Shown here in pieces: positions 17,459 to 31,342 of a stretch of 31,342 nt of DNA. The stretch is from Calditrichia bacterium (GTDB taxonomy: Bacteria > Calditrichota > Calditrichia > RBG-13-44-9 > J075), in the NCBI GenBank assembly GCA_050633245.1, contig JBOEGD010000014.1:158516-189857 (forward strand), read 5' to 3'. How positions within the stretch are numbered: the stretch's first letter is position 1; each line of letters begins with the position of its first letter. Below the pieces are notes generated by a model, which saw only the letters and a list, made by a program, of their open reading frames with translations, was not told the DNA's origin and did not search any database. The position numbers and the translations under genes were made by a program.

Positions 17459-18970
17459 ATGTCAAAACGTTATCTAGTAGTATTGATTGCGATTTCAATG
17501 CTGGCTACGACCTTCTCGGCTCTGGCTCAGTTTAAAGCAAACACCCTTGGTGGTGGTGCCGCAATTGGTACGACCATTGGTGACACAGACTTTGGACGTG
17601 ATGATGAAGGCGCAACTAATTTTCGCGCATTCCTTCGCCATAGCCTGGCAGACAAACTCGAAGCTGAAGTTGGTGCTGGAATTGCAAGCGGCCTGAACGG
17701 TGAAGATTACGAAACGCAGATGCTGCCGATCGACTTTCGCCTGTTATATCGTCCGTTTGAATTAACTGGTCTCAGCCCATATGTATTCGCTGGTGCCGGA
17801 GCAATCCGCTATGATGTTCGCGACGTTCCTGCAACTGCTACCGCAGATGCAGAGCTCGACGGATGGATGGGTTATGCTCCGCTGGGTGCTGGTGTTCAGA
17901 TTCGTCTAAATGACTACACCTCTTTTGAGATTCAAGGAACTTATGGGCTTGCATTTGATGACGAGCTGGAAGGCGTTGTTGCTGATGGCAACGATAAATT
18001 CTACAGCTTGACTGCTGGTCTTACCATGGCTGGTTTCGACGGCAACGCCGATCCGGACATGGATGGTCTTACGAATAGCGAAGAGAAGAAACTCGGAACC
18101 GATCCGCAGGTTGCCGACACCGATGGTGACGGTCTATTAGACGGTGAAGAATTCAATACGTATAAGACCGACCCGCTGAATCCTGATAGCGACAGCGACG
18201 GACTATCCGACAGCGAAGAAGTGAAGACTCATAAAACGAATCCGAACAGCGCCGACTCTGATGATGATACTCTTGGTGACAAGGACGAAGTTATGACCCA
18301 CGGTACCGACCCGAACAAGGCCGACACCGATGGCGACGGACTATCCGACCCGGATGAGTTGAACACTCACACCACCGATCCGAAGATGGCCGATATGGAC
18401 AAAGACGGTCTGAACGACGGTAAAGAGGTTAACGATACTAAAACCGATCCGAAGAACGCTGACACTGATGGTGATGGCCTCAACGACGGTGACGAAGTAA
18501 TGACTCACAAGTCCGATCCGATGAATGTTGACACTGACGCCGGTTCTGTTAATGACGGTGCTGAAGTTGCTCGCGGAACCAATCCGCTGGTTGCCTCCGA
18601 CGACGTTATTATCGAGGTTAAAGAAGTTGGTGCTCCAATCATTCTGGACGGTGTGGTATTTGCCACTGGTAAAGCAGACATTACCGATGCTTCCGCAGAA
18701 ATCCTGGAAAAAGCTTACAACACCATGCTGGCTTATCCGGAACTGGAAGTAGAGATTCATGGTTATACCGACAGCCAGGGTGGCGCACGTAGCAACCAGC
18801 GTCTTTCCAAGCGTCGTGCCGACTCCGTTCGCGCATGGCTCCTGCAGAAAGGTGTAGATCCTGCACGCGTAGCTGCTAAAGGTTTTGGCGAAGACAATCC
18901 GATTGCAGATAACGCTACTGCTGAAGGTCGTCAAGCTAACCGCCGCATCGAGTTTGTTCGCTCTAAGTAA
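17459..18970 (+). CDS. OmpA-family outer membrane protein (beta-barrel, Ca-binding DxDGDGL repeats, OmpA-C)
   Basis: Signal peptide; 8-strand-type barrel; about eight 23-aa DTDGDGLxDGxE...TDP repeats; GYTDSQG...NQRLSKRRA...NRRIEF. Confidence 0.92.
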   Translation: MSKRYLVVLIAISMLATTFSALAQFKANTLGGGAAIGTTIGDTDFGRDDEGATNFRAFLRHSLADKLEAEVGAGIASGLNGEDYETQMLPIDFRLLYRPFELTGLSPYVFAGAGAIRYDVRDVPATATADAELDGWMGYAPLGAGVQIRLNDYTSFEIQGTYGLAFDDELEGVVADGNDKFYSLTAGLTMAGFDGNADPDMDGLTNSEEKKLGTDPQVADTDGDGLLDGEEFNTYKTDPLNPDSDSDGLSDSEEVKTHKTNPNSADSDDDTLGDKDEVMTHGTDPNKADTDGDGLSDPDELNTHTTDPKMADMDKDGLNDGKEVNDTKTDPKNADTDGDGLNDGDEVMTHKSDPMNVDTDAGSVNDGAEVARGTNPLVASDDVIIEVKEVGAPIILDGVVFATGKADITDASAEILEKAYNTMLAYPELEVEIHGYTDSQGGARSNQRLSKRRADSVRAWLLQKGVDPARVAAKGFGEDNPIADNATAEGRQANRRIEFVRSK

Positions 18971-22532: not shown

Positions 22533-24353
22533 TCATCTCTTAAACCGCCTATCAAGCTCTTCGGTATCCAACGTGACCACAACCGGACGACCGTGCGGAC
22601 AAAAATAGGGTTCCTTTGTGGCAAACAGTTGGTTAATCAGGCTAAGCATGGCTTCCTGCGTCAGCGTTTCACCAGAGCGGATGCAGTTTTTATTGGCGTA
22701 AGCCGCAGCAATCTTTTCATTATGTTCGTAGCGACCACCGCTGTTCTCACGATAAAAATCGATAATATCCAGCAGGATCTTCGCCTCATTGCCAACGCGA
22801 ACGTCAGTGGGTATCGCTTCAATAACAATGGTGCGGCCGCTGAGCTGATTTATGGCAAAGCCAATCTTTTGCAGCCACTCATCAATCTCTTTGAAGATCA
22901 GAAAATCTTCCAGAGGAAGATCAATCGTTTGCGGAAATAACAGTTGCTGCGCAGCCGGTCGGCGGCCATCTTCAAGCTGCTTCAGAACCTGCTCATACAA
23001 AATACGCTCATGTGCCACCTGCTGATCGATAATAACCAGTCCGCTTTTTATCTGCGAGAAGATGTAACGTTTATGCACCTGCCACAGCGTGCCGACAGCC
23101 TCATCCTTCGGCGTCTGACCTTCAGATTCTGGTGGAGCTTGAACGGATGTCTTTGGCTTCAGATCCTCCGGCAGCGGTTTGTATTCAATACTGGTTTGCG
23201 CCTGCTCAGGTGGCAACGGTCGTTTTTCCGGCTCAACCGGAGCAAAATTTGTTGGTCGCGGTGGCGTAATCGAGGCAGACTTAAAGCTGCTCTCCTTACT
23301 AAAGTCCGATAGGCGTGCTCGCAGGTCGGTCGAGACATCCTTTTTCATATCAATCGATGGCACACCGCCGCCGGACTGTATTGCTTCGCGTATTGCCGAC
23401 AAGAATAAATGGTAAATGGCCTGATCATTGGCGAAGCGCACCTCCAGCTTCTTCGGGTGCACATTAATATCTACGCGATCAGGAGGCACTTCCAGAAACA
23501 GCACATATTGCGAGTAACGACCGCGTTCAATCAGATTTCCATAGCCCTGATGAATAGCATGCGACATGCTGCGACTGACAATCGCACGATTATTCAAGAA
23601 CATAAACTGATTGGCGGAATTGCCACGCGTTTTATCCGGACGACAGGCAAAACCACTCAACTGAATATCACCCAGCGTTTCGCGCACCGGCACCAGCGTA
23701 TTGAAAAAGGCCTTACCCATGGCTCCGGCAATGCGATCTTCCAGCGAAGCGGCAGGGAGATTATACAGTTCTTCACCGTCGCGGATCAGCACAAAATGCA
23801 CCTGCGGAAAAGACAGGAAGAAGCGCTTCATCCAGTTGTGGATATGATTGAATTCTGTATTGTCGGCGCGCAGGAAATTGCGCCGCGCAGGCGTATTAAA
23901 GAACAAATTGCGAATGGCAATCGACGTCCCAATGTTAAACGGAATTTTTTCGGTGGGATGCACCTTGCCGCCATCCATCAGAATGCGGCTGCCCACCGGC
24001 TCATTTTCAGTACGCGTTTTAATCTCCACCCGCGACACCGAAGCAATGCTCGGCAGCGCCTCACCGCGAAACCCCAGCGTTAGAATCTTATCGAGATCTT
24101 CCACTTCGGCGATCTTGCTGGTGGCGTGGCGCTCAAAAGCCAAAAGTACATCCTCATCGGTCATACCGATGCCGTCATCAATTACCTGAATCAGCTCTTT
24201 GCCAGCCTTCTCGATGACCACAGTAATTTTAGCAGAACCGGCATCGAGTGCATTCTCGACCAGCTCCTTTACAACCGCGGCAGGACGATCGACCACCTCT
24301 CCGGCAGCGATTTTATTGGCGATATGTGGTGGTAAAACAGTGATAGAAGACAT
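22533..24353 (-). CDS. mutL: DNA mismatch repair endonuclease MutL
   Basis: IAAGEVVDRPAAVVKELVENALDAG; HATSKI; GFRGEAL; DINVHP; DQQVAHERILYE; CPHGRP. Confidence 0.98.
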   Translation of the reverse strand: MSSITVLPPHIANKIAAGEVVDRPAAVVKELVENALDAGSAKITVVIEKAGKELIQVIDDGIGMTDEDVLLAFERHATSKIAEVEDLDKILTLGFRGEALPSIASVSRVEIKTRTENEPVGSRILMDGGKVHPTEKIPFNIGTSIAIRNLFFNTPARRNFLRADNTEFNHIHNWMKRFFLSFPQVHFVLIRDGEELYNLPAASLEDRIAGAMGKAFFNTLVPVRETLGDIQLSGFACRPDKTRGNSANQFMFLNNRAIVSRSMSHAIHQGYGNLIERGRYSQYVLFLEVPPDRVDINVHPKKLEVRFANDQAIYHLFLSAIREAIQSGGGVPSIDMKKDVSTDLRARLSDFSKESSFKSASITPPRPTNFAPVEPEKRPLPPEQAQTSIEYKPLPEDLKPKTSVQAPPESEGQTPKDEAVGTLWQVHKRYIFSQIKSGLVIIDQQVAHERILYEQVLKQLEDGRRPAAQQLLFPQTIDLPLEDFLIFKEIDEWLQKIGFAINQLSGRTIVIEAIPTDVRVGNEAKILLDIIDFYRENSGGRYEHNEKIAAAYANKNCIRSGETLTQEAMLSLINQLFATKEPYFCPHGRPVVVTLDTEELDRRFKR

Positions 24354-24475
24354 TGAATATTGACCAGTGGCAATTGAAATGATGGATTAGTATTGATGAT
24401 CTATGATTTATGAATCATGATTAAAAAGACAGATTTTCATTTTTTATCACGCTAAGCCCTTGGCTGTTGCACCGA

Positions 24476-24645
24476 GTCCCTTCGTTTGTCACACCGAGCG
24501 GAGTCGAGGTGCTCAGTATAAACTCCGTCGAAGCGCTTGCAGCAGATAAAAATCGGCAATTTACATACGGCAAATACAAAACGGCAATTTACAGACGGCA
24601 GCTTTTTCTGACCGTCTCTCACTGCCTCTCACCGCTTCTGACATC
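24476..24645. repeat. REP-like palindrome remnant plus 14-bp-period repeats
   Basis: GTCACACCGAGCGGAGTCGAGGTG and CTCCGTCGAAG; ACGGCAAWTTAC-type units at about 24549-24601; TCTCACYGC-type units at about 24606-24645. Confidence 0.5.
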
Positions 24646-24829
24646 TAACAGCGAAGCGATCTGTCTTCTGTATTTGATGAATTTACGGCTGATAAGAGAA
24701 GAAATCAAACGGCGAAGGAAGTTTTCGGTTGTTTGTAAGGTTTGACAGTGTTCTAGAACGAACATACGGAAATTGATTAAGGCGGCTTTTTTAAGATGCC
24801 TGGCGGCGATATAATCAAGTCGTTTGAAC

Positions 24830-24942
24830 GCGGCTATCGATCTCTTGCTTTCTCAAAATAAGCCCTTTATATTCCCAAACAAACTCAATCCAACTTTAAC
24901 AAATAATCTCAATAAAAGGCAATTGCTGATATTGGGAATGTT
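24830..24942 (+). promoter_or_regulatory. Repeated module copy 1: sigma-70 promoter + attI-like site
   Basis: TTGCTT(24845)-N17-TATATT(24868); TTAACAAATA...GCAATTG..GATATTGGGAAT-GTT(24940). Confidence 0.75.
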
Positions 24943-24965
24943 GTACGCAATTAAAAGAAAACCAT

Positions 24966-26402
24966 ATGAAACCTAAAATATTCATTGGATCTTCAGTTGA
25001 AGGATTAAGCATTGCTTATTCAATACAACAAAATTTAACCCATGATGCTGAAATTACAGTTTGGGATCAAGGTGTTTTTGAGTTATCAAGTACAACCATT
25101 GAATCCTTAGTAAAAATTTTGGAGAATTCAGACTTTGGCATTTTTGTTTTTAGTAATGACGATATTACTAAAATTAGAGATAAAGAACTTGAAACTATTA
25201 GAGATAATGTACTATTTGAATTTGGATTGTTTATTGGCAAACTATCAAGAGAACGTGTTTATTTTGTAATACCTTCAGATACAGAATTGCATTTACCTAC
25301 AGATTTACTAGGAATAACTCCAGGGAAGTTTGACCCTAATAGGGAAGATGGGAGTTTACAAGCTGCAACGGGTGCTGTTTCTAATCAGATACGACTTATG
25401 ATGAAGAAACTTGGTAAAATTAATCCAGATGATGCCGACCCTTCTTCATCAGACAGGTCATCCAGGATAATTGATAAAGATAATGCATGGCATGATGATT
25501 TTCTAAACAAAAAGTATGTCGATGCACAAAAAAAATTAAAAGCACTAATAAAGAAAACAAAAGAGCCTGAAGAAAAGGTAGAAAATGAGTTATGGTCGCT
25601 TTATTGTGATATGAAAAATAATGAGCAAGAAGGCATAAAGTTATTGGATAAGTATTTAAAAAAGAACTACGAAAATATTAGGATACATAAGGGTGTAGCG
25701 AGAATTTATATGTGGGAAGACTATCTAGATAAATCAAGTGATATTCTTAGTACTGCAATTGAGAAATTCAATTCTGACCCTTCATTAATTTTAGTATTGT
25801 CACAATGCTATAAAAAATCATACAGCATTGACAAGTCGATACAACTTCTTAAAGATCATAAGCCTACGGAAAATCCAGATATTGCGGTTGAGATTGTAAC
25901 CTTATTAATGGAGGAGAATGAGTATCATGAAGCAAGAGCAATCATTCATGAAACGTATAATAAATATCCGAATAATGAAAATGTAAAATATAAATATGCT
26001 CTGCTTGCCATTGAATTAGAGGAAAATGAAATAGCTCTATTTTTACTTAATTCTCTTACGATTGAATTTGATAACAATTCGTCCTATTGGGGTTATCTAA
26101 GCAATACAGCAGTACAACTAGATTTTTATGATTTAGCACTTTCTGCCTGCCGTAAGGCTGAAGACTTGTCTAATTCTAAGGAGGAATGGATAAAGTCAAA
26201 CATCGGTAATATGCTTAAAAATAAAGGGTTTTATACTGAAAGTATTGAATACTTTGAAAAGGGAATTGGGTTAGATAAAAGCTCAGACTATGCACATGAA
26301 AGATTAGCTTCTGCTTTAAAACTGAAAGAAGAAGAAAATAAAAAAGTTCAAACTTCAATTAAATCGGGTTTAAAACAAATTAGAGAATATATTCGAGAAT
26401 AA
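24966..26402 (+). CDS. Cap12/Pycsar-type TIR domain fused to TPR repeats; candidate anti-phage NADase
   Basis: KPKIFIGSSVEGL...VWDQGVF...TIESL...DFGIFVFSNDD...RDNVLFEFGLFIGKLSRER...PTDLLG; C-terminal TPR-like helical repeats. Confidence 0.85.
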   Translation: MKPKIFIGSSVEGLSIAYSIQQNLTHDAEITVWDQGVFELSSTTIESLVKILENSDFGIFVFSNDDITKIRDKELETIRDNVLFEFGLFIGKLSRERVYFVIPSDTELHLPTDLLGITPGKFDPNREDGSLQAATGAVSNQIRLMMKKLGKINPDDADPSSSDRSSRIIDKDNAWHDDFLNKKYVDAQKKLKALIKKTKEPEEKVENELWSLYCDMKNNEQEGIKLLDKYLKKNYENIRIHKGVARIYMWEDYLDKSSDILSTAIEKFNSDPSLILVLSQCYKKSYSIDKSIQLLKDHKPTENPDIAVEIVTLLMEENEYHEARAIIHETYNKYPNNENVKYKYALLAIELEENEIALFLLNSLTIEFDNNSSYWGYLSNTAVQLDFYDLALSACRKAEDLSNSKEEWIKSNIGNMLKNKGFYTESIEYFEKGIGLDKSSDYAHERLASALKLKEEENKKVQTSIKSGLKQIREYIRE

Positions 26403-26406
26403 CTGC

Positions 26407-26538
26407 ATACAACATTTTGTATAAGTCATGGCAAGGAAAGTGCTTAATATCAAGGTTTGTAGCTCGCTCAAACGGTGTAGCGGCTTGATTGGATATTATC
26501 ACGTAATCTACCACTACTCATACAATTTACCGTTACCG
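26407..26538 (+). mobile_element. attC site of the TIR-TPR cassette
   Basis: R'' ATACAAC; arms TTGTATAAGT(26417-26)/ACTCATACAA(26516-25); R' GTTACCG; TAACTGCATACAAC is 12/14 complementary to cassette start GTTGTACGCAATTA(24940). Confidence 0.8.
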
Positions 26539-26656
26539 ATAGCATCGAGCTATGCATGCCCCCTTTAACAAATCAGCAGCCTACCGATTAAAACCATTCT
26601 CTCCTCTCACCTTCCATAAGCAGCAACAAGACTATCCGCTTTTTACAAACCGAAAT

Positions 26657-26763
26657 GCAACCATCGGCCTTTTTGCTTTTACACAATAGAGCCTCTATAT
26701 TTCTAAATAATCGCACCTCATGATTAACAAATAGCCCAAGCAACTGTGGATATTGGCCATGTT
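26657..26763 (+). promoter_or_regulatory. Repeated module copy 2: sigma-70 promoter + attI-like site
   Basis: TTGCTT(26673)-N17-TATATT(26696); TTAACAAATAG...GCAACTG..GATATTGGCCAT-GTT(26761). Confidence 0.75.
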
Positions 26764-26794
26764 ATGAGCAATTCAAAAAAATGAACCATTCTGA

Positions 26795-27838
26795 ATGAAT
26801 ATGACAAAAGAAAAAATAAAACAAATCCTCAGAATAGTATTTATTATAGCAAGCATATCCTCCCTGTTCTTTGTGCCATGGCTGTTGGTTAAGGCGTGGA
26901 TACTTCCGTTACCGGATACGGTTCAAGAGCAGTTAGATGAAGCCATTGGTCATGGATTTGACGGAATGATTGTTTACGTAGACCAGGCTGGTAAACCACC
27001 GCAGTATTTTGCTTCCGGATGGCACGATCGAGAATCCAAGATACCTGCTAATCCTCACGCACTATTTAAGATTGCAAGCATCAGTAAGCTATATGATGCT
27101 GTAGCTGTTACCAAACTGGTTGGTGATGAACGTCTTTCTTTGGATAAAACCATCGCAGATTATTTACCGGAGCTTGTGGGAAGAATCGAAAATTCAGACA
27201 AAATCACCTTGCGGTTGATGATACAACATAGAAGTGGCATACCCAATTTTACAGACGCTCCAAATTTTTGGGCAGCTCCAACAGAAACCTATGAAGAAAG
27301 CCTTGCACTGATTCAGGACAAGCCGGCCAACTTTGAACCCGGTGAAGACTATGAATATTGTAATACGAATTATCTTTTAATCAATAAAATAATGGATGAT
27401 ACACTGGGTTATGGGAACTTTCAATTCATTCAGGAAGAGATACTAATACCGCTAAATCTTAACCATACCTTCAGTTCGCTAAGTGAAGTAAATATAGACG
27501 ATGTGATGAGTGGCTATCATGTTGGATATCCCCATGATTTAAAGACTAACGATTATGGCATGCATGCCACAGCAGAAGACGTGGGCACTTTCCTAAGAGC
27601 ATTAAACGATGGATCATTGTTTGAACCAGGAGAACAGGAAATATATGCGTCTATTTATGAGTATGAGCATTCGGGTTGGGTGCCGGGATACCAGAGTTTC
27701 GCAAAATATGACAAAGACCTTGATGCTGTTATTATTGAGTTCTACAGCACAACCGATCCTAAACTGTACAATTGGAACCTGTCTGAAATCATAAATAATA
27801 GAATTGTTAAAATACTAAAAAAGAAAAAAAGCTCATAA
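26795..27838 (+). CDS. Serine hydrolase, beta-lactamase/PBP-like (AmpC-related) family
   Basis: SISK (SxxK), YCN (YxN), HSG; HRSGI; N-terminal TM helix. Confidence 0.9.
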   Translation: MNMTKEKIKQILRIVFIIASISSLFFVPWLLVKAWILPLPDTVQEQLDEAIGHGFDGMIVYVDQAGKPPQYFASGWHDRESKIPANPHALFKIASISKLYDAVAVTKLVGDERLSLDKTIADYLPELVGRIENSDKITLRLMIQHRSGIPNFTDAPNFWAAPTETYEESLALIQDKPANFEPGEDYEYCNTNYLLINKIMDDTLGYGNFQFIQEEILIPLNLNHTFSSLSEVNIDDVMSGYHVGYPHDLKTNDYGMHATAEDVGTFLRALNDGSLFEPGEQEIYASIYEYEHSGWVPGYQSFAKYDKDLDAVIIEFYSTTDPKLYNWNLSEIINNRIVKILKKKKSS

Positions 27839-27848
27839 TATTTTGTAG
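27831..27848 (+). mobile_element. Truncated, degenerate attC (left half only)
   Basis: GCTCATAAT complements cassette start GTTATGAGC (AAC changed to AAT), followed by ATTTTGTA as in the first attC, then no partner arm. Confidence 0.6.
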
Positions 27849-27921
27849 CAGAGAATGGGACCGTATTTCGTTCCCATGATCAAAAGCAAGTACGCTCAGG
27901 TAATGACAACGTTTTGATAAT

Positions 27922-28032
27922 GCGACTATCGCTCTCTTGCATTCCCACAACAGGCCCTTTATATTTCTAAATAACCGTACTTCTTAATTAACAAATAGCC
28001 CCAAAAGCGCAATTGCAGATATTGGGACTGTT
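27922..28032 (+). promoter_or_regulatory. Repeated module copy 3: sigma-70 promoter + attI-like site
   Basis: TTGCAT(27937)-N17-TATATT(27960); TTAACAAATAG...GCAATTG..GATATTGGGACT-GTT(28030). Confidence 0.75.
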
Positions 28033-28047
28033 AGAGGTAATTAATAA

Positions 28048-28764
28048 ATGGAAAATCAGAACTTCAATATTATTTCAATTGCTCCCAGTATAATCAGGTA
28101 CTTCCCGGCTTCTATGGAAAAGGAAGACTGGATGGGAGATGAATATGTTAAATTCACAGAATTAGAAATTCCTCTTGGACATTCCAGATATGGCGGACCT
28201 GTGGTTGACTTGCCTGAAGATACTCAGATTCCTGGAGGCATGAGATTTGCCGCCCAATTAGATCTCTTTATGTTTTCTAAATACGACCCTTCTGGGCTAT
28301 TACCTCAAAAAGGGCAACTCATTTTCTTTGCCGATATAATGTCAGACTCAGGGAAAGTAATTTATAATGATACGCCCAATGAAAACTTAAAAAGAAATAT
28401 CATTGAACATGAGGATAACTTCTGGGATGGAGTTCTAATTGATAAAATCTGGACAGACAAGGAATCTTGGAATGAAAGGTTTCGAGAACCCGAAGACGAT
28501 TGGGACAAAAAAAACGTAAATGAAAACGGATTGATCTGGGACGATTTCGCTGGGAGTGAAAGATCTAAGTTGTTTGGGATTTTTACGCATTGCCAATTGG
28601 GACAGTCTGAAATTGAAAAAATCACTGACTCAGGGAAAGTCGTTCTACTTCAAATAGGGGAAAACGGATTTAATGATGAAGGGGTTTTCAGTGTCCTTAT
28701 TCCCAAAAAGGATTTAGAGAACTTAAATTTCCACAACTGTGAATTTCACTGGGGACAATCATGA
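28048..28764 (+). CDS. DUF1963/YwqG-like protein
   Basis: G-x-S-R-Y-G-G-P-x-x-D-L-P; FAAQLDL...LLPQKGQLIFF; VLLQI...D-x-G...LIPKKDLENLNF...WGQS. Confidence 0.75.
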   Translation: MENQNFNIISIAPSIIRYFPASMEKEDWMGDEYVKFTELEIPLGHSRYGGPVVDLPEDTQIPGGMRFAAQLDLFMFSKYDPSGLLPQKGQLIFFADIMSDSGKVIYNDTPNENLKRNIIEHEDNFWDGVLIDKIWTDKESWNERFREPEDDWDKKNVNENGLIWDDFAGSERSKLFGIFTHCQLGQSEIEKITDSGKVVLLQIGENGFNDEGVFSVLIPKKDLENLNFHNCEFHWGQS

Positions 28765-28771
28765 AAAATAC

Positions 28772-28824
28772 CGCCAACACAGTGTAAAAGTGTATTAAAA
28801 CGCATTTTACACTAAATGTTATGC
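28772..28824 (+). mobile_element. Short attC site
   Basis: R'' CGCCAAC; arms AGTGTAAAA/TTTTACACT with an adjacent extra G; R' GTTATGC; R'' region 9/12 complementary to cassette start GTTAGAGGTAAT. Confidence 0.85.
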
Positions 28825-28855
28825 TCAACTAAAAAAGAAAAAATCGACAGCTCAA

Positions 28856-29293
28856 ATGAAAAAGCTAATTCCAGCAGAATCAGATAAAGTTTTAAAATCC
28901 CAAATTGGGGAAATAAAAAACAATGACGATGCAATCAAACAGTTTTTGAAATTCTTCGAAGAATTCAAAATTAAAGAAGAATTAGAACATGAGGAAGAAG
29001 ATATGATGTTGTTTCAATATGGTATCTACGATTGGCAAAACGGAAAGGGGAAAGAATTCAGCTTCGGTTTAACCAGGCAATTTGAAATTCCAGATGAAGA
29101 TGAATTTTTACAATTAAGTCTAACACTCTTTTACAATTGCGACCAAACCGGAGAAGTTGAATCGTTTAATAGTTGGTCAGTAGATAGTGGAAACCTAAAT
29201 GATTGGGAACAACTAATAAAAAATTCAGAAGGGTATTTAAAATCCAAAAATCGAACTCCCAATAGAATTGAAATTGGATTGGTTGAAACATAA
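28856..29293 (+). CDS. Hypothetical acidic protein (cassette gene of unknown function)
   Basis: 145-aa ORF right after an attC R'; DMMLFQYGIYDW...LTRQF...LQLSLTLFY. Confidence 0.75.
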   Translation: MKKLIPAESDKVLKSQIGEIKNNDDAIKQFLKFFEEFKIKEELEHEEEDMMLFQYGIYDWQNGKGKEFSFGLTRQFEIPDEDEFLQLSLTLFYNCDQTGEVESFNSWSVDSGNLNDWEQLIKNSEGYLKSKNRTPNRIEIGLVET

Positions 29294-29405
29294 ATAAGGT
29301 GTTTTGAAAAAAAGTTTTAACTATGAAGATTCTATATATTAGAATTCCAATTGAGGGAAAGATAATCCCCCCGAAAAATAGTGCTGTTTGTAAGTAGAAT
29401 TTTCT

Positions 29406-29414
29406 TGTTATACT
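29406..29414 (+). promoter_or_regulatory. Possible extended -10 promoter for the esterase
   Basis: TG-T-TATACT, 27 nt before ATG 29442. Confidence 0.4.
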
Positions 29415-29441
29415 TAGTCTCCACCAAAACCCGAGCTCCCA

Positions 29442-30710
29442 ATGAAAGACCTCTCGATCTTCCTGTTACTCATCTCCATTCAGTTCACAGTATTCGCTCA
29501 GAGCAATGACCAAACAAACGACATCTCCATCGGCCAAACAATTGAAATAGAATCCAGAATTCTCGGTGAGACCAGGCAGATCTTTGTGCATCAGCCGAAA
29601 GGCTTTTGGGGTATGGATGAAGCGATGAGTAATTTTCCAGTTGTGCTGGTTCTGGATGGCGAATCGCAGTTCCTGCATACGGTAAGCACCGTGGACTTTT
29701 TGAGCTCTGCCCCGCTGGGGAACGATATAATTCCGAGATCGCTTGTGGTTGGAATAGCGAATACCAATCGCGATAGAGATTTAACTCCCATCAAAGGAGT
29801 GATTGCAAATGATTCAACGACTTTGGAAATAACCGGCGGTGGGAAAACATTTCTGAGCTTCATAACGGAGGAGCTGATTCCGTTTATTGAGGCTAACTAT
29901 TCAACGTCAAATCATCGAACAATTATTGGGCATTCTTTAGGTGGACTCATTGCGTTTGAAGCGCTCCTGCGAAAAAGAGGCTACTTCAATAACTACATTG
30001 CAATAGATCCTGGATTGGGATATGCAGACGAAATCTATATGCAAGAAGTCCTGGATACGCTAAACCATGCTGACCTTTCAACAGAGAACCTGTATTTTGC
30101 AGCCGGTAATACCCGGCCGACTTTTTTGACAGATGAAGATCTGCTAACAGACGACTCGGATTTTATGAAGCTAACGGACATACCAAATCGAAAGTTCATC
30201 AATGAGACCGAGAAGAATGAATGGTCACTCAACCTGACCTCCAAACATTATCCAGCAGACAACCACTTTTCAATTCCCCTGAAGGCAACCGATGACGCCC
30301 TGAGGACATTCTATCAGTATTACTCATTTCCGGAAATAATCGATTACTATCATCCGAAGTACAAGAATAAGTCAGGCCTGATTGAAAAAATCGAAGCCCA
30401 TTACAAAATGATTAGCTCCAAAATGGGATATGAAGTTATTCCGATGGTGGGCTACATAAATTCATTTGCATTCGGCATCGCCCCCTCAGGCAGAATGGAT
30501 TTAGCAATTGCCTTATTCGAGTACAATATTGAACTGCACCCGAATAATCCTGTTGTCTATAATAACATTGGCTACTTCTACATGTCCCAAGGAAATAAAC
30601 AGGGTGCTTTAAAAGCCTTTAAGAAATCGGTTCAGCTTAAATTCGACGATTACATTCTCGGATTGGTCGAGAGTCTGGAAAAGGAAATAGCTGATGATAA
30701 CAAAGGATAA
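29442..30710 (+). CDS. Secreted alpha/beta hydrolase (IroE/Fes-like esterase) with C-terminal TPR
   Basis: Signal peptide; PVVLVLDG; RDRDLTP; GHSLGG; DNH; TPR-like tail. Confidence 0.88.
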   Translation: MKDLSIFLLLISIQFTVFAQSNDQTNDISIGQTIEIESRILGETRQIFVHQPKGFWGMDEAMSNFPVVLVLDGESQFLHTVSTVDFLSSAPLGNDIIPRSLVVGIANTNRDRDLTPIKGVIANDSTTLEITGGGKTFLSFITEELIPFIEANYSTSNHRTIIGHSLGGLIAFEALLRKRGYFNNYIAIDPGLGYADEIYMQEVLDTLNHADLSTENLYFAAGNTRPTFLTDEDLLTDDSDFMKLTDIPNRKFINETEKNEWSLNLTSKHYPADNHFSIPLKATDDALRTFYQYYSFPEIIDYYHPKYKNKSGLIEKIEAHYKMISSKMGYEVIPMVGYINSFAFGIAPSGRMDLAIALFEYNIELHPNNPVVYNNIGYFYMSQGNKQGALKAFKKSVQLKFDDYILGLVESLEKEIADDNKG

Positions 30711-30755
30711 AACATCAGTAGAATAATAGGGCAAGAATTAAATAAAAAGATCAGC

Positions 30756-30821
30756 TGACAACAAGACTTATAAGCAATAGCGCCCTGCGGGACGCTACTG
30801 CTCATAGCCAAACCGTTATGC
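30756..30821 (+). mobile_element. attC site
   Basis: R'' TGACAAC; GACTTATAAGCAATAGCGCCC-TGC-GGGACGCTACTGCTCATAGCC hairpin with extrahelical bases; R' GTTATGC. Confidence 0.88.
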
Positions 30822-30854
30822 TCAATTATATATAAAAAAGCCGACAAAATAATA

Positions 30855-31307
30855 ATGAACCAATTCAATATATTAAATCGTGAAATGACGCCTGAAGAAA
30901 TGGATAAAATGAACTCTGGGTTTGATCAGCTTTCGCTTGAGGAAGGTTTAGAACCAGAAAGTTCAGACAGACTCACTTTCGTGGCTCTGGACGGTAACAC
31001 GTTTATCGGTTGTTCATCAGGTTTAGTATACAAAAATGGTGATAACTATTCGGGTTGGTTTTTTCTTACAGATCTTTTTGTAGAGAAAAAATATCGTTCT
31101 CAAGGTTTGGGGACAGATCTATTGAAAACACTAGAAGAACAGGCAATAGTCATAGGTGTAAAAAACATATGGCTTTGGACCTCGGGCTTTGAAGCCTTGA
31201 AGTTCTATCGAAGACATGGTTATTATGAGTTCATAGAAATGGAATCGTGGTATTCTGATGGAAGCAGTCGGGTTGGATTAAGAAAGAATTTATCCACAAT
31301 ATCATGA
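30855..31307 (+). CDS. GNAT family N-acetyltransferase
   Basis: LFVEKKYRSQGLGTDLL (motif A); ALKFYRRHGY. Confidence 0.93.
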   Translation: MNQFNILNREMTPEEMDKMNSGFDQLSLEEGLEPESSDRLTFVALDGNTFIGCSSGLVYKNGDNYSGWFFLTDLFVEKKYRSQGLGTDLLKTLEEQAIVIGVKNIWLWTSGFEALKFYRRHGYYEFIEMESWYSDGSSRVGLRKNLSTIS

Positions 31308-31320
31308 CCATACGAAAAGA

Positions 31321-31342
31321 TAACAGAGTACAACGAATGAAT
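31321..31342 (+). mobile_element. Start (R'') of the next attC, cut by the window edge
   Basis: TAACAGAGTACAAC is 10/14 complementary to GNAT cassette start GTTATGCTCAATTA (30815). Confidence 0.7.

Follow-up and report, generated by a model that had tools for sequence, protein, structure and literature searches.

Gene-less units with a predicted promoter are iterated in an integrase-less cassette array of a Calditrichia bacterium

The locus described here raises the question of what a short gene-free repeat, met again and again between the genes of a cassette array without an adjacent integrase, contributes to that array. The array begins within the window, i.e., the whole stretch of 31,342 nucleotides that was analysed (C14:158516-189857, where C14 is contig JBOEGD010000014.1 of the Calditrichia bacterium assembly GCA_050633245.1), and continues past its end. 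Plain positions below are those of the window, positions marked L019 belong to a numbering of the same array that runs on past the window end, and C7 is a separate contig. An earlier examination of the letters alone (the sequence-only reading) had described three copies of a module in which a promoter is followed by an attI-like site, and had proposed a platform in which an integrase acting in trans would serve several loading sites. The repeat is real and more numerous than had been thought. The explanation we favour, which seems to us about evenly poised, is that the units are promoter cassettes without a gene, all of one family and with attC ends in decay, residing in a cluster of attC sites lacking an integron-integrase (CALIN).

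The three copies lie where they had been placed, i.e., at 24830-24942, 26657-26763 and 27922-28032; they align with a mean column identity of 73%, and a repeat search lists them as families D1-D3. Motif details that had been reported for them, i.e., TTAACAAATA, GCAAYTG and GATATTGG-N4-GTT, are also found in all three on reading the sequence. When copy 3 was compared by BLAST with the 6.35-Mb genome, copy 1 (E 5.7e-15) and copy 2 (E 2.4e-13) were recovered at 74-75% identity. The number three applies to the window only, as the genome-wide search that had been suggested, done by BLAST and with a profile built from the five array copies, brings the total to six, two of the additional copies lying just past the window end and one on C7:

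24822..24942, + strand: M1 (copy 1), a gene-less unit from the left GTT at 24822 to the right G/TT (G at 24940; the slash marks where a cassette begins); alignments A1 and A3, profile R1 108.9 bits
26533..26761, + strand: gene-less unit 2, the 3' part of which is M2 (copy 2, 26657-26763); from alignments, longest open reading frame (ORF) 51 aa
27912..28032, + strand: M3 (copy 3), a 119-nt gene-less unit from GTT 27911 to G/TT 28030
C14:190065-190206, same orientation as M1-M3: M4 (copy 4)
C14:193640-193776, same orientation as M1-M3: M5 (copy 5)
C7:165169-165304, minus strand: M6 (copy 6, degenerate), found with the five-copy profile

All of M1-M5 share one orientation within C14:183331-193776 (10.4 kb), where they are spaced 1.3-3.6 kb apart, and identity between copies is 72-76% by BLAST. 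It had been considered possible that the module always travels with the same downstream gene; within this genome, six copies stand ahead of six different genes, and the module is thus not bound to one gene.

The boundaries of the units were examined together with those of the cassettes that follow them. A script placed the G of the module G/TT at 24940, 26761 and 28030, and the cassettes behind are:

24941..26532, + strand: cassette 1, with a TIR (CAP12/Pycsar-type) plus TPR gene at 24966-26402 (Pfam) and a complete attC at 26405-26538
26762..27911, + strand: cassette 2, with a beta-lactamase-fold gene at 26795-27838 (Pfam), an R''-like GCTCATAAT at 27831-27839 and a non-canonical attC region reaching to GTT 27911
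28031..28818, + strand: cassette 3, with a DUF1963 gene at 28048-28764 (Pfam) and a short canonical attC at 28772-28824

It had been claimed that each cassette starts at the module G/TT and that this start complements the R'' behind the same gene, and the numbers agree with the claim. The first 12 nt of cassette 1 are complementary at 10 of 12 positions to sequence behind its own gene, a value reached by 3 of 2000 shuffles, and the repeat search lists the same pair as a 17-nt inverted repeat, 88% complementary (I7); cassettes 2 and 3 each reach 9 of 12 (74 and 117 of 2000 shuffles, respectively). The module is a unit separate from the cassette behind it. On the left, M1 starts at GTT 24822, M3 at GTT 27911, and unit 2 at the G/TT (26532) of the complete attC of cassette 1; since the units have a GTT or an attC G/TT on the left and a G/TT on the right, they are bounded by crossover points. 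Between these points, i.e., at 24822-24940, 26533-26761 and 27912-28030, there is no gene: units 1 and 3 are just 119 nt long, and unit 2 has no ORF of more than 51 aa (unit 4 none of more than 56 aa). In several copies GTT is followed, after N4 to N6 (N5 in copies 1-3), by GCAATTA. As the same word stands 3' of a canonical attC that has no module (L019 14086-14100), it belongs to the local cassette 5' ends and not to the module.

The part of the module that is best conserved is its predicted promoter. Script and reading both find TTGC(T/A)T-N17-TATATT in copies 1-3, with a spacer of exactly 17 nt as had been reported, and by reading M6 also has TTGNNN-N17-TATATT. The predicted promoters in the window are:

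24845-24873, + strand: promoter of M1, TTGCTT-N17-TATATT, located by script; matches the host tRNA-promoter motif
26673-26701, + strand: promoter of M2, located by script
27937-27965, + strand: promoter of M3, located by script

The host motif was obtained from the 100 nt upstream of each of 35 tRNA genes predicted by aragorn. TTGNNN-N17-TATATT occurs upstream of 10 of them, 11-29 nt before the tRNA, mostly in the form CTTGAC or CTTGC...TATATTT(T)G, and a host promoter consensus of CTTGAC/CTTGC-N17-TATATTT(T)G can be deduced. We take its -35 to be sigma-70-like and its -10 to resemble the TAnnTTTG element of Bacteroidetes. The motif TTGNNN-N17-TATATT is found 206 times in the genome, both strands counted; within C14:182000-201000 the + strand has five, one for each of M1-M5, and the - strand has none. 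Among M1-M5 the mean pairwise identity is 1.00 in the -10 and 0.93 in the -35 hexamer, 0.78 in the right arm of the palindrome described below, 0.74 in TTAACAAAT and 0.68 in the left arm, and it is 0.50 directly 3' of the -10 and 0.42-0.51 past GTT. Because the host's own consensus is matched and the hexamers are conserved, the prediction of a promoter directed into the cassettes, which the sequence-only reading had also made, is well supported. The motif is not confined to this array: it lies upstream of intI in two relatives, and in a third at the start of intI, facing the cassettes. Array DNA sampled from two relatives that have an integrase (G012, about 15 kb, and G009, 9 kb) lacks the strict motif on its cassette strand.

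A second promoter-like element, more diverged, is present in the same array. It has the form TTTAT(A/T)TTTTCCAA-CTCAGCCCA-GTGTAAC-AAT and occurs at L019 11520-11600, just upstream of M5, and at L019 12470-12545, upstream of a gene for a 495-aa protein with a beta-lactamase fold. A TTTAACAAAT fragment at 26564-26575 is possibly another relic of it.

About 20 nt past the promoter comes the module 3' end, an imperfect AAC...GTT palindrome that ends at the G/TT of the next cassette. In the alignment the left arm consensus AGTCCCAATA complements the right arm consensus TATTGGGACT about a GCAATTGC centre, and TTAAC lies 36-41 nt upstream of GTT in copies 1-3. Two of the palindromes are:

24895..24946, + strand: eroded palindrome of M1, TTTAAC ... 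GCAATTGC ... GATATTGGGAATGTT; fold of -1.5 to -3.1 kcal/mol, z 0.7 to -0.1
27986-28036, + strand: palindrome of M3, from alignment and fold

An attC has the inverted core sites R'' (RYYYAAC) and R' (GTTRRRY); at these places M1-M3 have (A/T)TTAAC...GTT, M4 and M5 have GAC and AAT, respectively, for AAC, and M5 has GTC for GTT. From AAC to GTT, M3 measures 43 nt and the bona fide attC at 28772-28824 measures 45 nt. M4 has a perfect palindrome, the fold of which (-17 kcal/mol, z -8 to -9) exceeds that of every canonical attC of the array. These observations do not agree with the view that the modules lack the AAC left half and must for that reason be attI-like rather than attC: the left arm is there in copies 1-3, as part of an inverted repeat that is perfect in M4. 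Folding as an attC on the bottom strand had been named as an outcome that would speak against attI, and here the answer is divided, since M4 forms a stable hairpin and M1, M2, M3 and M5 fold at the level of shuffles.

The sites to which the module ends are compared are canonical attCs with the anatomy R''-N6-L''...L'-N6 to N9-R'. Three are in the window, at 26405-26538, 28772-28824 (N6; bottom-strand fold -7.8 kcal/mol, z -3.3) and 30756-30821 (a stem of 17 pairs; -11.3 kcal/mol, z -2.6), and past its end there are two more (L019 14044-14092 and about 17738-17795). For these sites, folding of the bottom strand gave -7.2 to -14.7 kcal/mol with z from -1.6 to -3.3. They were identified by reading and folding, and not with the attC model of IntegronFinder. 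A first scan that demanded R''/R' complementarity was dropped, as its output consisted mostly of false positives in coding regions.

The assembly yielded no integron integrase: its top match to TIGR02249 scores 83 bits against a cut-off of 265, there is none on C14, and a tblastn search with IntI of four relatives gave matches of 23-40% identity on other contigs, the full-length ones being Xer-like (27-34%). The assembly is 97% complete in 59 contigs, and an unassembled intI is therefore possible. Among the 37 genomes of the order, 16 carry an IntI over the TIGR02249 cut-off; within the family, 9 of 15 genomes match IntI at E <= 1e-40 and 8 of these 9 are over the cut-off. The sequence-only reading was right that no integrase is adjacent and that mutL, not intI, lies upstream of copy 1; the integrase that it supposed to act in trans was not found by either search. 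The left border of the array is formed by:

22533..24353, - strand: mutL, a core gene (Pfam DNA_mis_repair, MutL_C, HATPase_c_3)
24354..24821, no strand: spacer between mutL and the array, about 470 nt, rich in sequence resembling repetitive extragenic palindromes (REP), with no intI remnant

Because it combines a cluster of attC sites with the lack of any integrase found, the array, with several attCs on one strand, corresponds to what Cury et al. (2016; PMC4889954) call a CALIN. The REP word GAGCGGAGTCGA has 44 occurrences in the genome, and the spacer also holds a tandem pair of 28-nt units, 86% alike (24542-24597; family D5). As to the host, its genome has at least 150 sorting domains of the type IX secretion system (T9SS), none of which is seen in 14 control genomes, and we presume that a T9SS-bearing host is probably to be placed in the FCB (Fibrobacteres-Chlorobi-Bacteroidetes) group.

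Short gene-free units of one family are thus interspersed in an array that lacks an integrase. Each consists of two parts, first a predicted promoter like the housekeeping consensus of the host, facing the downstream cassettes, and second the imperfect AAC...GTT palindrome, with the next cassette starting at its end. According to the explanation we favour, the units would be gene-less promoter cassettes. The attC ends would mostly have decayed after integrase activity was lost and the promoter would have been kept by selection, each copy starting a transcript over the next one to four cassettes, so that the unit promoters would stand in for the missing cassette promoter (Pc). The state of the copies fits that of a hairpin released from selection next to a promoter that is still selected.

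Several observations weigh against this explanation. First, the hairpins of M1, M2, M3 and M5 are no stabler than shuffles (z 0.7 to -1.3), and the five-copy alignment shows no covariation, with 60.9% of pairing cells against 59.1% when shuffled and one compensatory pair. Second, the stem of the module takes in nucleotides that the neighbouring canonical attCs leave unpaired as a spacer, and a bulge of 3-4 nt lies beside AAC, as read from sequence and folds. Third, cassettes 1-3 show a terminal complementarity (9-10 of 12) that the units do not: the 5' ends of the three units in the window match the inner AAC region at 6-8 of 12 positions, which is reached by 590-1683 of 2000 shuffles. Fourth, a scan for the sigma-70 consensus of E. 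coli type did not list the module promoter, and by our own reading the module -35, TTGCTT, fits that consensus at 3 of 6 positions.

Gene-less cassettes with promoters are known from other arrays. In the excerpts of the two reports most of the gene-less cassettes assayed in Vibrio superintegrons act as sense-strand promoters (Blanco et al., 2024; PMC11014356), and promoter activity is described for ORF-less cassettes of Treponema type from the oral cavity as well (Tansirichaiya et al., 2019; PMC6557892). As far as these excerpts go, the present units are alike in being short ORF-less units between crossover points with a sense-strand promoter (here predicted) that lies away from a Pc and would enhance expression of the cassettes downstream of it. 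They differ in that here one sequence family is found five times in 10.4 kb at 72-76% identity, that the first copy heads the array without intI, attI or Pc, and that the attC part, short with its AAC-to-GTT span of 43 nt, is eroded in four of the five copies; furthermore promoter activity here is deduced from sequence, and the host bears a T9SS and is neither a Vibrio nor a spirochaete. What is unusual is that one family is iterated five times, that the array head is taken by M1 instead of Pc and attI, and that M6 heads a lone foreign gene. The arrangement as such is of a known kind and not a new type of recombination platform; going by the same excerpts (PMC11014356, PMC6557892), the idea of an unprecedented multi-entry platform is not supported, as gene-less promoter cassettes within arrays have been described. 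The array resembles CALINs as characterised in the portion of the source consulted (PMC4889954) in having attCs of the same orientation, cassette-type cargo and neither intI nor an intI pseudogene nearby, and departs from that portion in bearing its own repeated consensus promoters.

The sixth copy merits separate description. M6 retains the promoter and the left arm without the right arm. In its locus (C7:162056-165320, minus strand) it lies upstream of a gene of low G+C content (31-37%) for a 1013-aa protein with an HD-CE domain; on one side there is REP-rich core DNA and on the other a C-terminal fragment of an IS3-type transposase, recognised by eye alone. The HD-CE gene was considered as a true cassette and rejected, as an ungapped comparison of its start with R'' gave 8 of 12, a value that 266 of 2000 shuffles also attained, and the sequence 3' of it does not fold (z about 0).

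It is possible, if unlikely, that the module is a promoter with an operator or leader that was spread by duplication or gene conversion and is unrelated to integron recombination, the palindrome then being the binding site of a dimeric regulator or a hairpin in a 5' untranslated region. The palindrome with its GCAATTGC centre does lie about 25-65 nt downstream of the -10, the stretch 3' of the promoter is better conserved (0.68-0.78) than the flanks, and M6, which kept promoter and left arm and not the right arm, is outside any array, upstream of the HD-CE gene. However, the arms are 12, 13 or 15 nt apart in different copies by our own count and the centre is partly deleted in M2, which is unusual for an operator, and no regulator gene is associated with the module. 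Neither does this account for unit edges that coincide with GTT crossover points, the right edge being exactly where cassettes with a matching R'' start.

We give a similarly low probability to the unit being an integrase-free mini-platform, i.e., a promoter together with an attC-type docking site at which a visiting integrase could add cassettes by attC x attC recombination. If this were true, the unit would have inserted at ordinary genomic sites (beside mutL and on C7) and newcomers would gain first-position expression; it would be the promoter-equipped loading site of the sequence-only reading, built from attC rather than attI, and it would account for the origin of CALINs, and for their continued expression, where a genome has no intI, arrays growing without a resident platform. 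A comparison can be made with cassettes inserted at secondary sites of a genome (attG; SALIN, single attC sites lacking an integrase), the expression of which, in the excerpt of that report, depends on nearby host promoters (Loot et al., 10.1101/2022.09.11.507474). With what that excerpt describes, M1 and M6 share that they adjoin ordinary core intergenic DNA, and M1 starts at GTT, as expected for insertion at a site that is not an att site; the difference is that the inserted unit would here carry its own promoter.

The proposal of the sequence-only reading, that each module is a double-stranded attI-like entry site plus promoter and that an integrase in trans serves several loading sites in the array, now appears distinctly unlikely. 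The likeness to canonical attI plus Pc is that a promoter is followed by the G/TT where cassettes begin and that one copy is at the array head; M1 is thus in the position of an attI, M6 heads a single foreign gene, and both adjoin REP-rich core DNA. The right arm beside G/TT is well conserved (0.78), a weak direct repeat joins the 5' block to the right arm (GATAATGCGACT vs GATATTGGGACT in M3), and the six copies are followed by six different genes. On the other hand an attI adjoins intI as a single copy at the array head, whereas here no intI was found in the assembly, none is adjacent, and copies occur within the array, which holds five; to our knowledge five attI sites within one array are without precedent, no literature search having been aimed at the point. 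The module has an inverted left half, perfect in M4, and hence an inverted AAC...GTT palindrome where the canonical attI has an adjacent L/R simple site, and there is no inverted AAC box within about 15 nt upstream of G/TT, a feature of the attI1 simple site. Left and right arms have decayed about equally, with about 9 and about 7 departures from consensus per 50 positions by our own count. Sequences of attI are not conserved between integrons. When compared with the DNA that flanks intI at 19 loci of relatives, the module resembles none of it (best E 0.078), nor is it found in any of the order's other 36 genomes, of which 16 have an IntI over the cut-off.

This last result comes from a search of relatives that had been suggested for further copies and that gave none. 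Profile R1 finds the module credibly in 0 of these 36 genomes, and BLAST matches nothing in the family's 15 other genomes. Four weak R1 matches in the order (E 3.5e-4 to 9e-3) were set aside; the two best fall within ORFs, one of 422 and one of 555 aa. No match to the module came from the plasmid and phage collections, and Rfam has none in L019 save an artificial palindrome at the NN described below. With a strict pattern, one match was obtained in a collection of genome contigs, in a Wolbachia record, and judged to be chance; two matches in metagenome contigs score no better with nhmmer than the Wolbachia one, have flanks unlike the module and were likewise judged to be chance. Because the strict pattern fits 4 of the 6 copies only, diverged relatives would escape it. 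An empty site could not be reconstructed, since four relatives share no gene order past mutL with C14:170000-235952 and relatives' MutL is 54-62% identical (15 other genomes of the family). In the complete integron of one relative, G012, a long (ATTGGTT)n microsatellite lies between intI and array (L040 5230-5400), and the first 2 kb of its array (L040 5900-7900) consists of near-identical attC repeats of about 130 nt with no ORF of at least 100 aa between them.

Sedentary integrons have species-specific attC repeats of 120-130 nt. The whole unit of about 130 nt could accordingly be one long attC of the upstream cassette with the promoter in its variable loop, and its size is near that of the attCs of about 130 nt in G012. 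At the 5' edge of the module, AAC-N7-TAA in M3 and AAC-N6-TAA in M4 stand in the register of canonical attCs, and M2 has AAC there too. Nevertheless we consider this very unlikely. The ends pair in none of the four whole-module bottom-strand folds, the z value being notable in M4 alone, where it comes from the inner hairpin. The R'' of cassette 2 is at 27831-27839, away from the module edge, unit 2 is already preceded by a complete attC that belongs to cassette 1, and M1 and M6 have no upstream cassette.

That the module is a miniature inverted-repeat transposable element or the end of an insertion sequence (IS) targeting cassette arrays is hardly credible. It is a short multi-copy repeat with the by-eye IS3-type transposase fragment beside its C7 locus, but one without terminal inverted repeats or target duplications at the unit edges of the alignment, with six copies only, 72-76% identical and five of them in one array in one orientation, and without a match in the plasmid and phage collections or Rfam.

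The remainder of the array is of the same character. Its genes are on the same strand, have a low G+C content and encode typical cassette-type products, and judged by G+C and by the last attC recognised the array extends to about C14:199800. Past cassette 3 the window contains:

28819..30815, + strand: two further genes, a 145-aa unknown at 28856-29293 and an esterase-TPR gene at 29442-30710 (Pfam), with an attC at 30756-30821
30816..31342, + strand: GNAT cassette, with a GNAT gene at 30855-31307 (Pfam)

The products of the array are TIR-TPR, three proteins with a beta-lactamase fold, DUF1963, esterase-TPR and GNAT, then MBOAT, a 338-aa unknown family and TIR_2 from genes in a row, and DUF6624, glyoxalase-like and RibD_C proteins. 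The gene behind M5 (L019 11757-12404) is a DUF6624 homologue in two pieces of 85 aa and 126 aa, split by an in-frame TAG, and is probably a pseudogene. At the window end there is an NN (C14:189858-189859) bordered by a perfect 19-nt inverted duplicate (31324-31342; L019 7861-7879) that includes ACAAC...GTTGT, with GATAAC and GTTAAAA as brackets around it. This palindrome represents either a hairpin of attC type whose loop is masked or a join that the assembly made by folding back, and owing to the perfect inverted duplicate on both sides of NN the continuity of the array across it is not certain.

TIR proteins occur in two cassettes, one being a TIR of CAP12/Pycsar-effector type fused to TPR (24966-26402) and the other TIR_2 (L019 10657-11421), which suggests that these cassettes are anti-phage defence cargo. 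Integrase-less cassette clusters are common. Whether the genes of CALINs are expressed is stated to be unknown in the portion of the source consulted (Cury et al., 2016; PMC4889954). The array described here suggests one answer, i.e., that gene-free units with a promoter of host consensus, placed every 1.3-3.6 kb, may take over this task. As the cargo includes two TIR proteins and, at M6, an HD-CE protein, it is conceivable that these promoters keep defence-type genes active.

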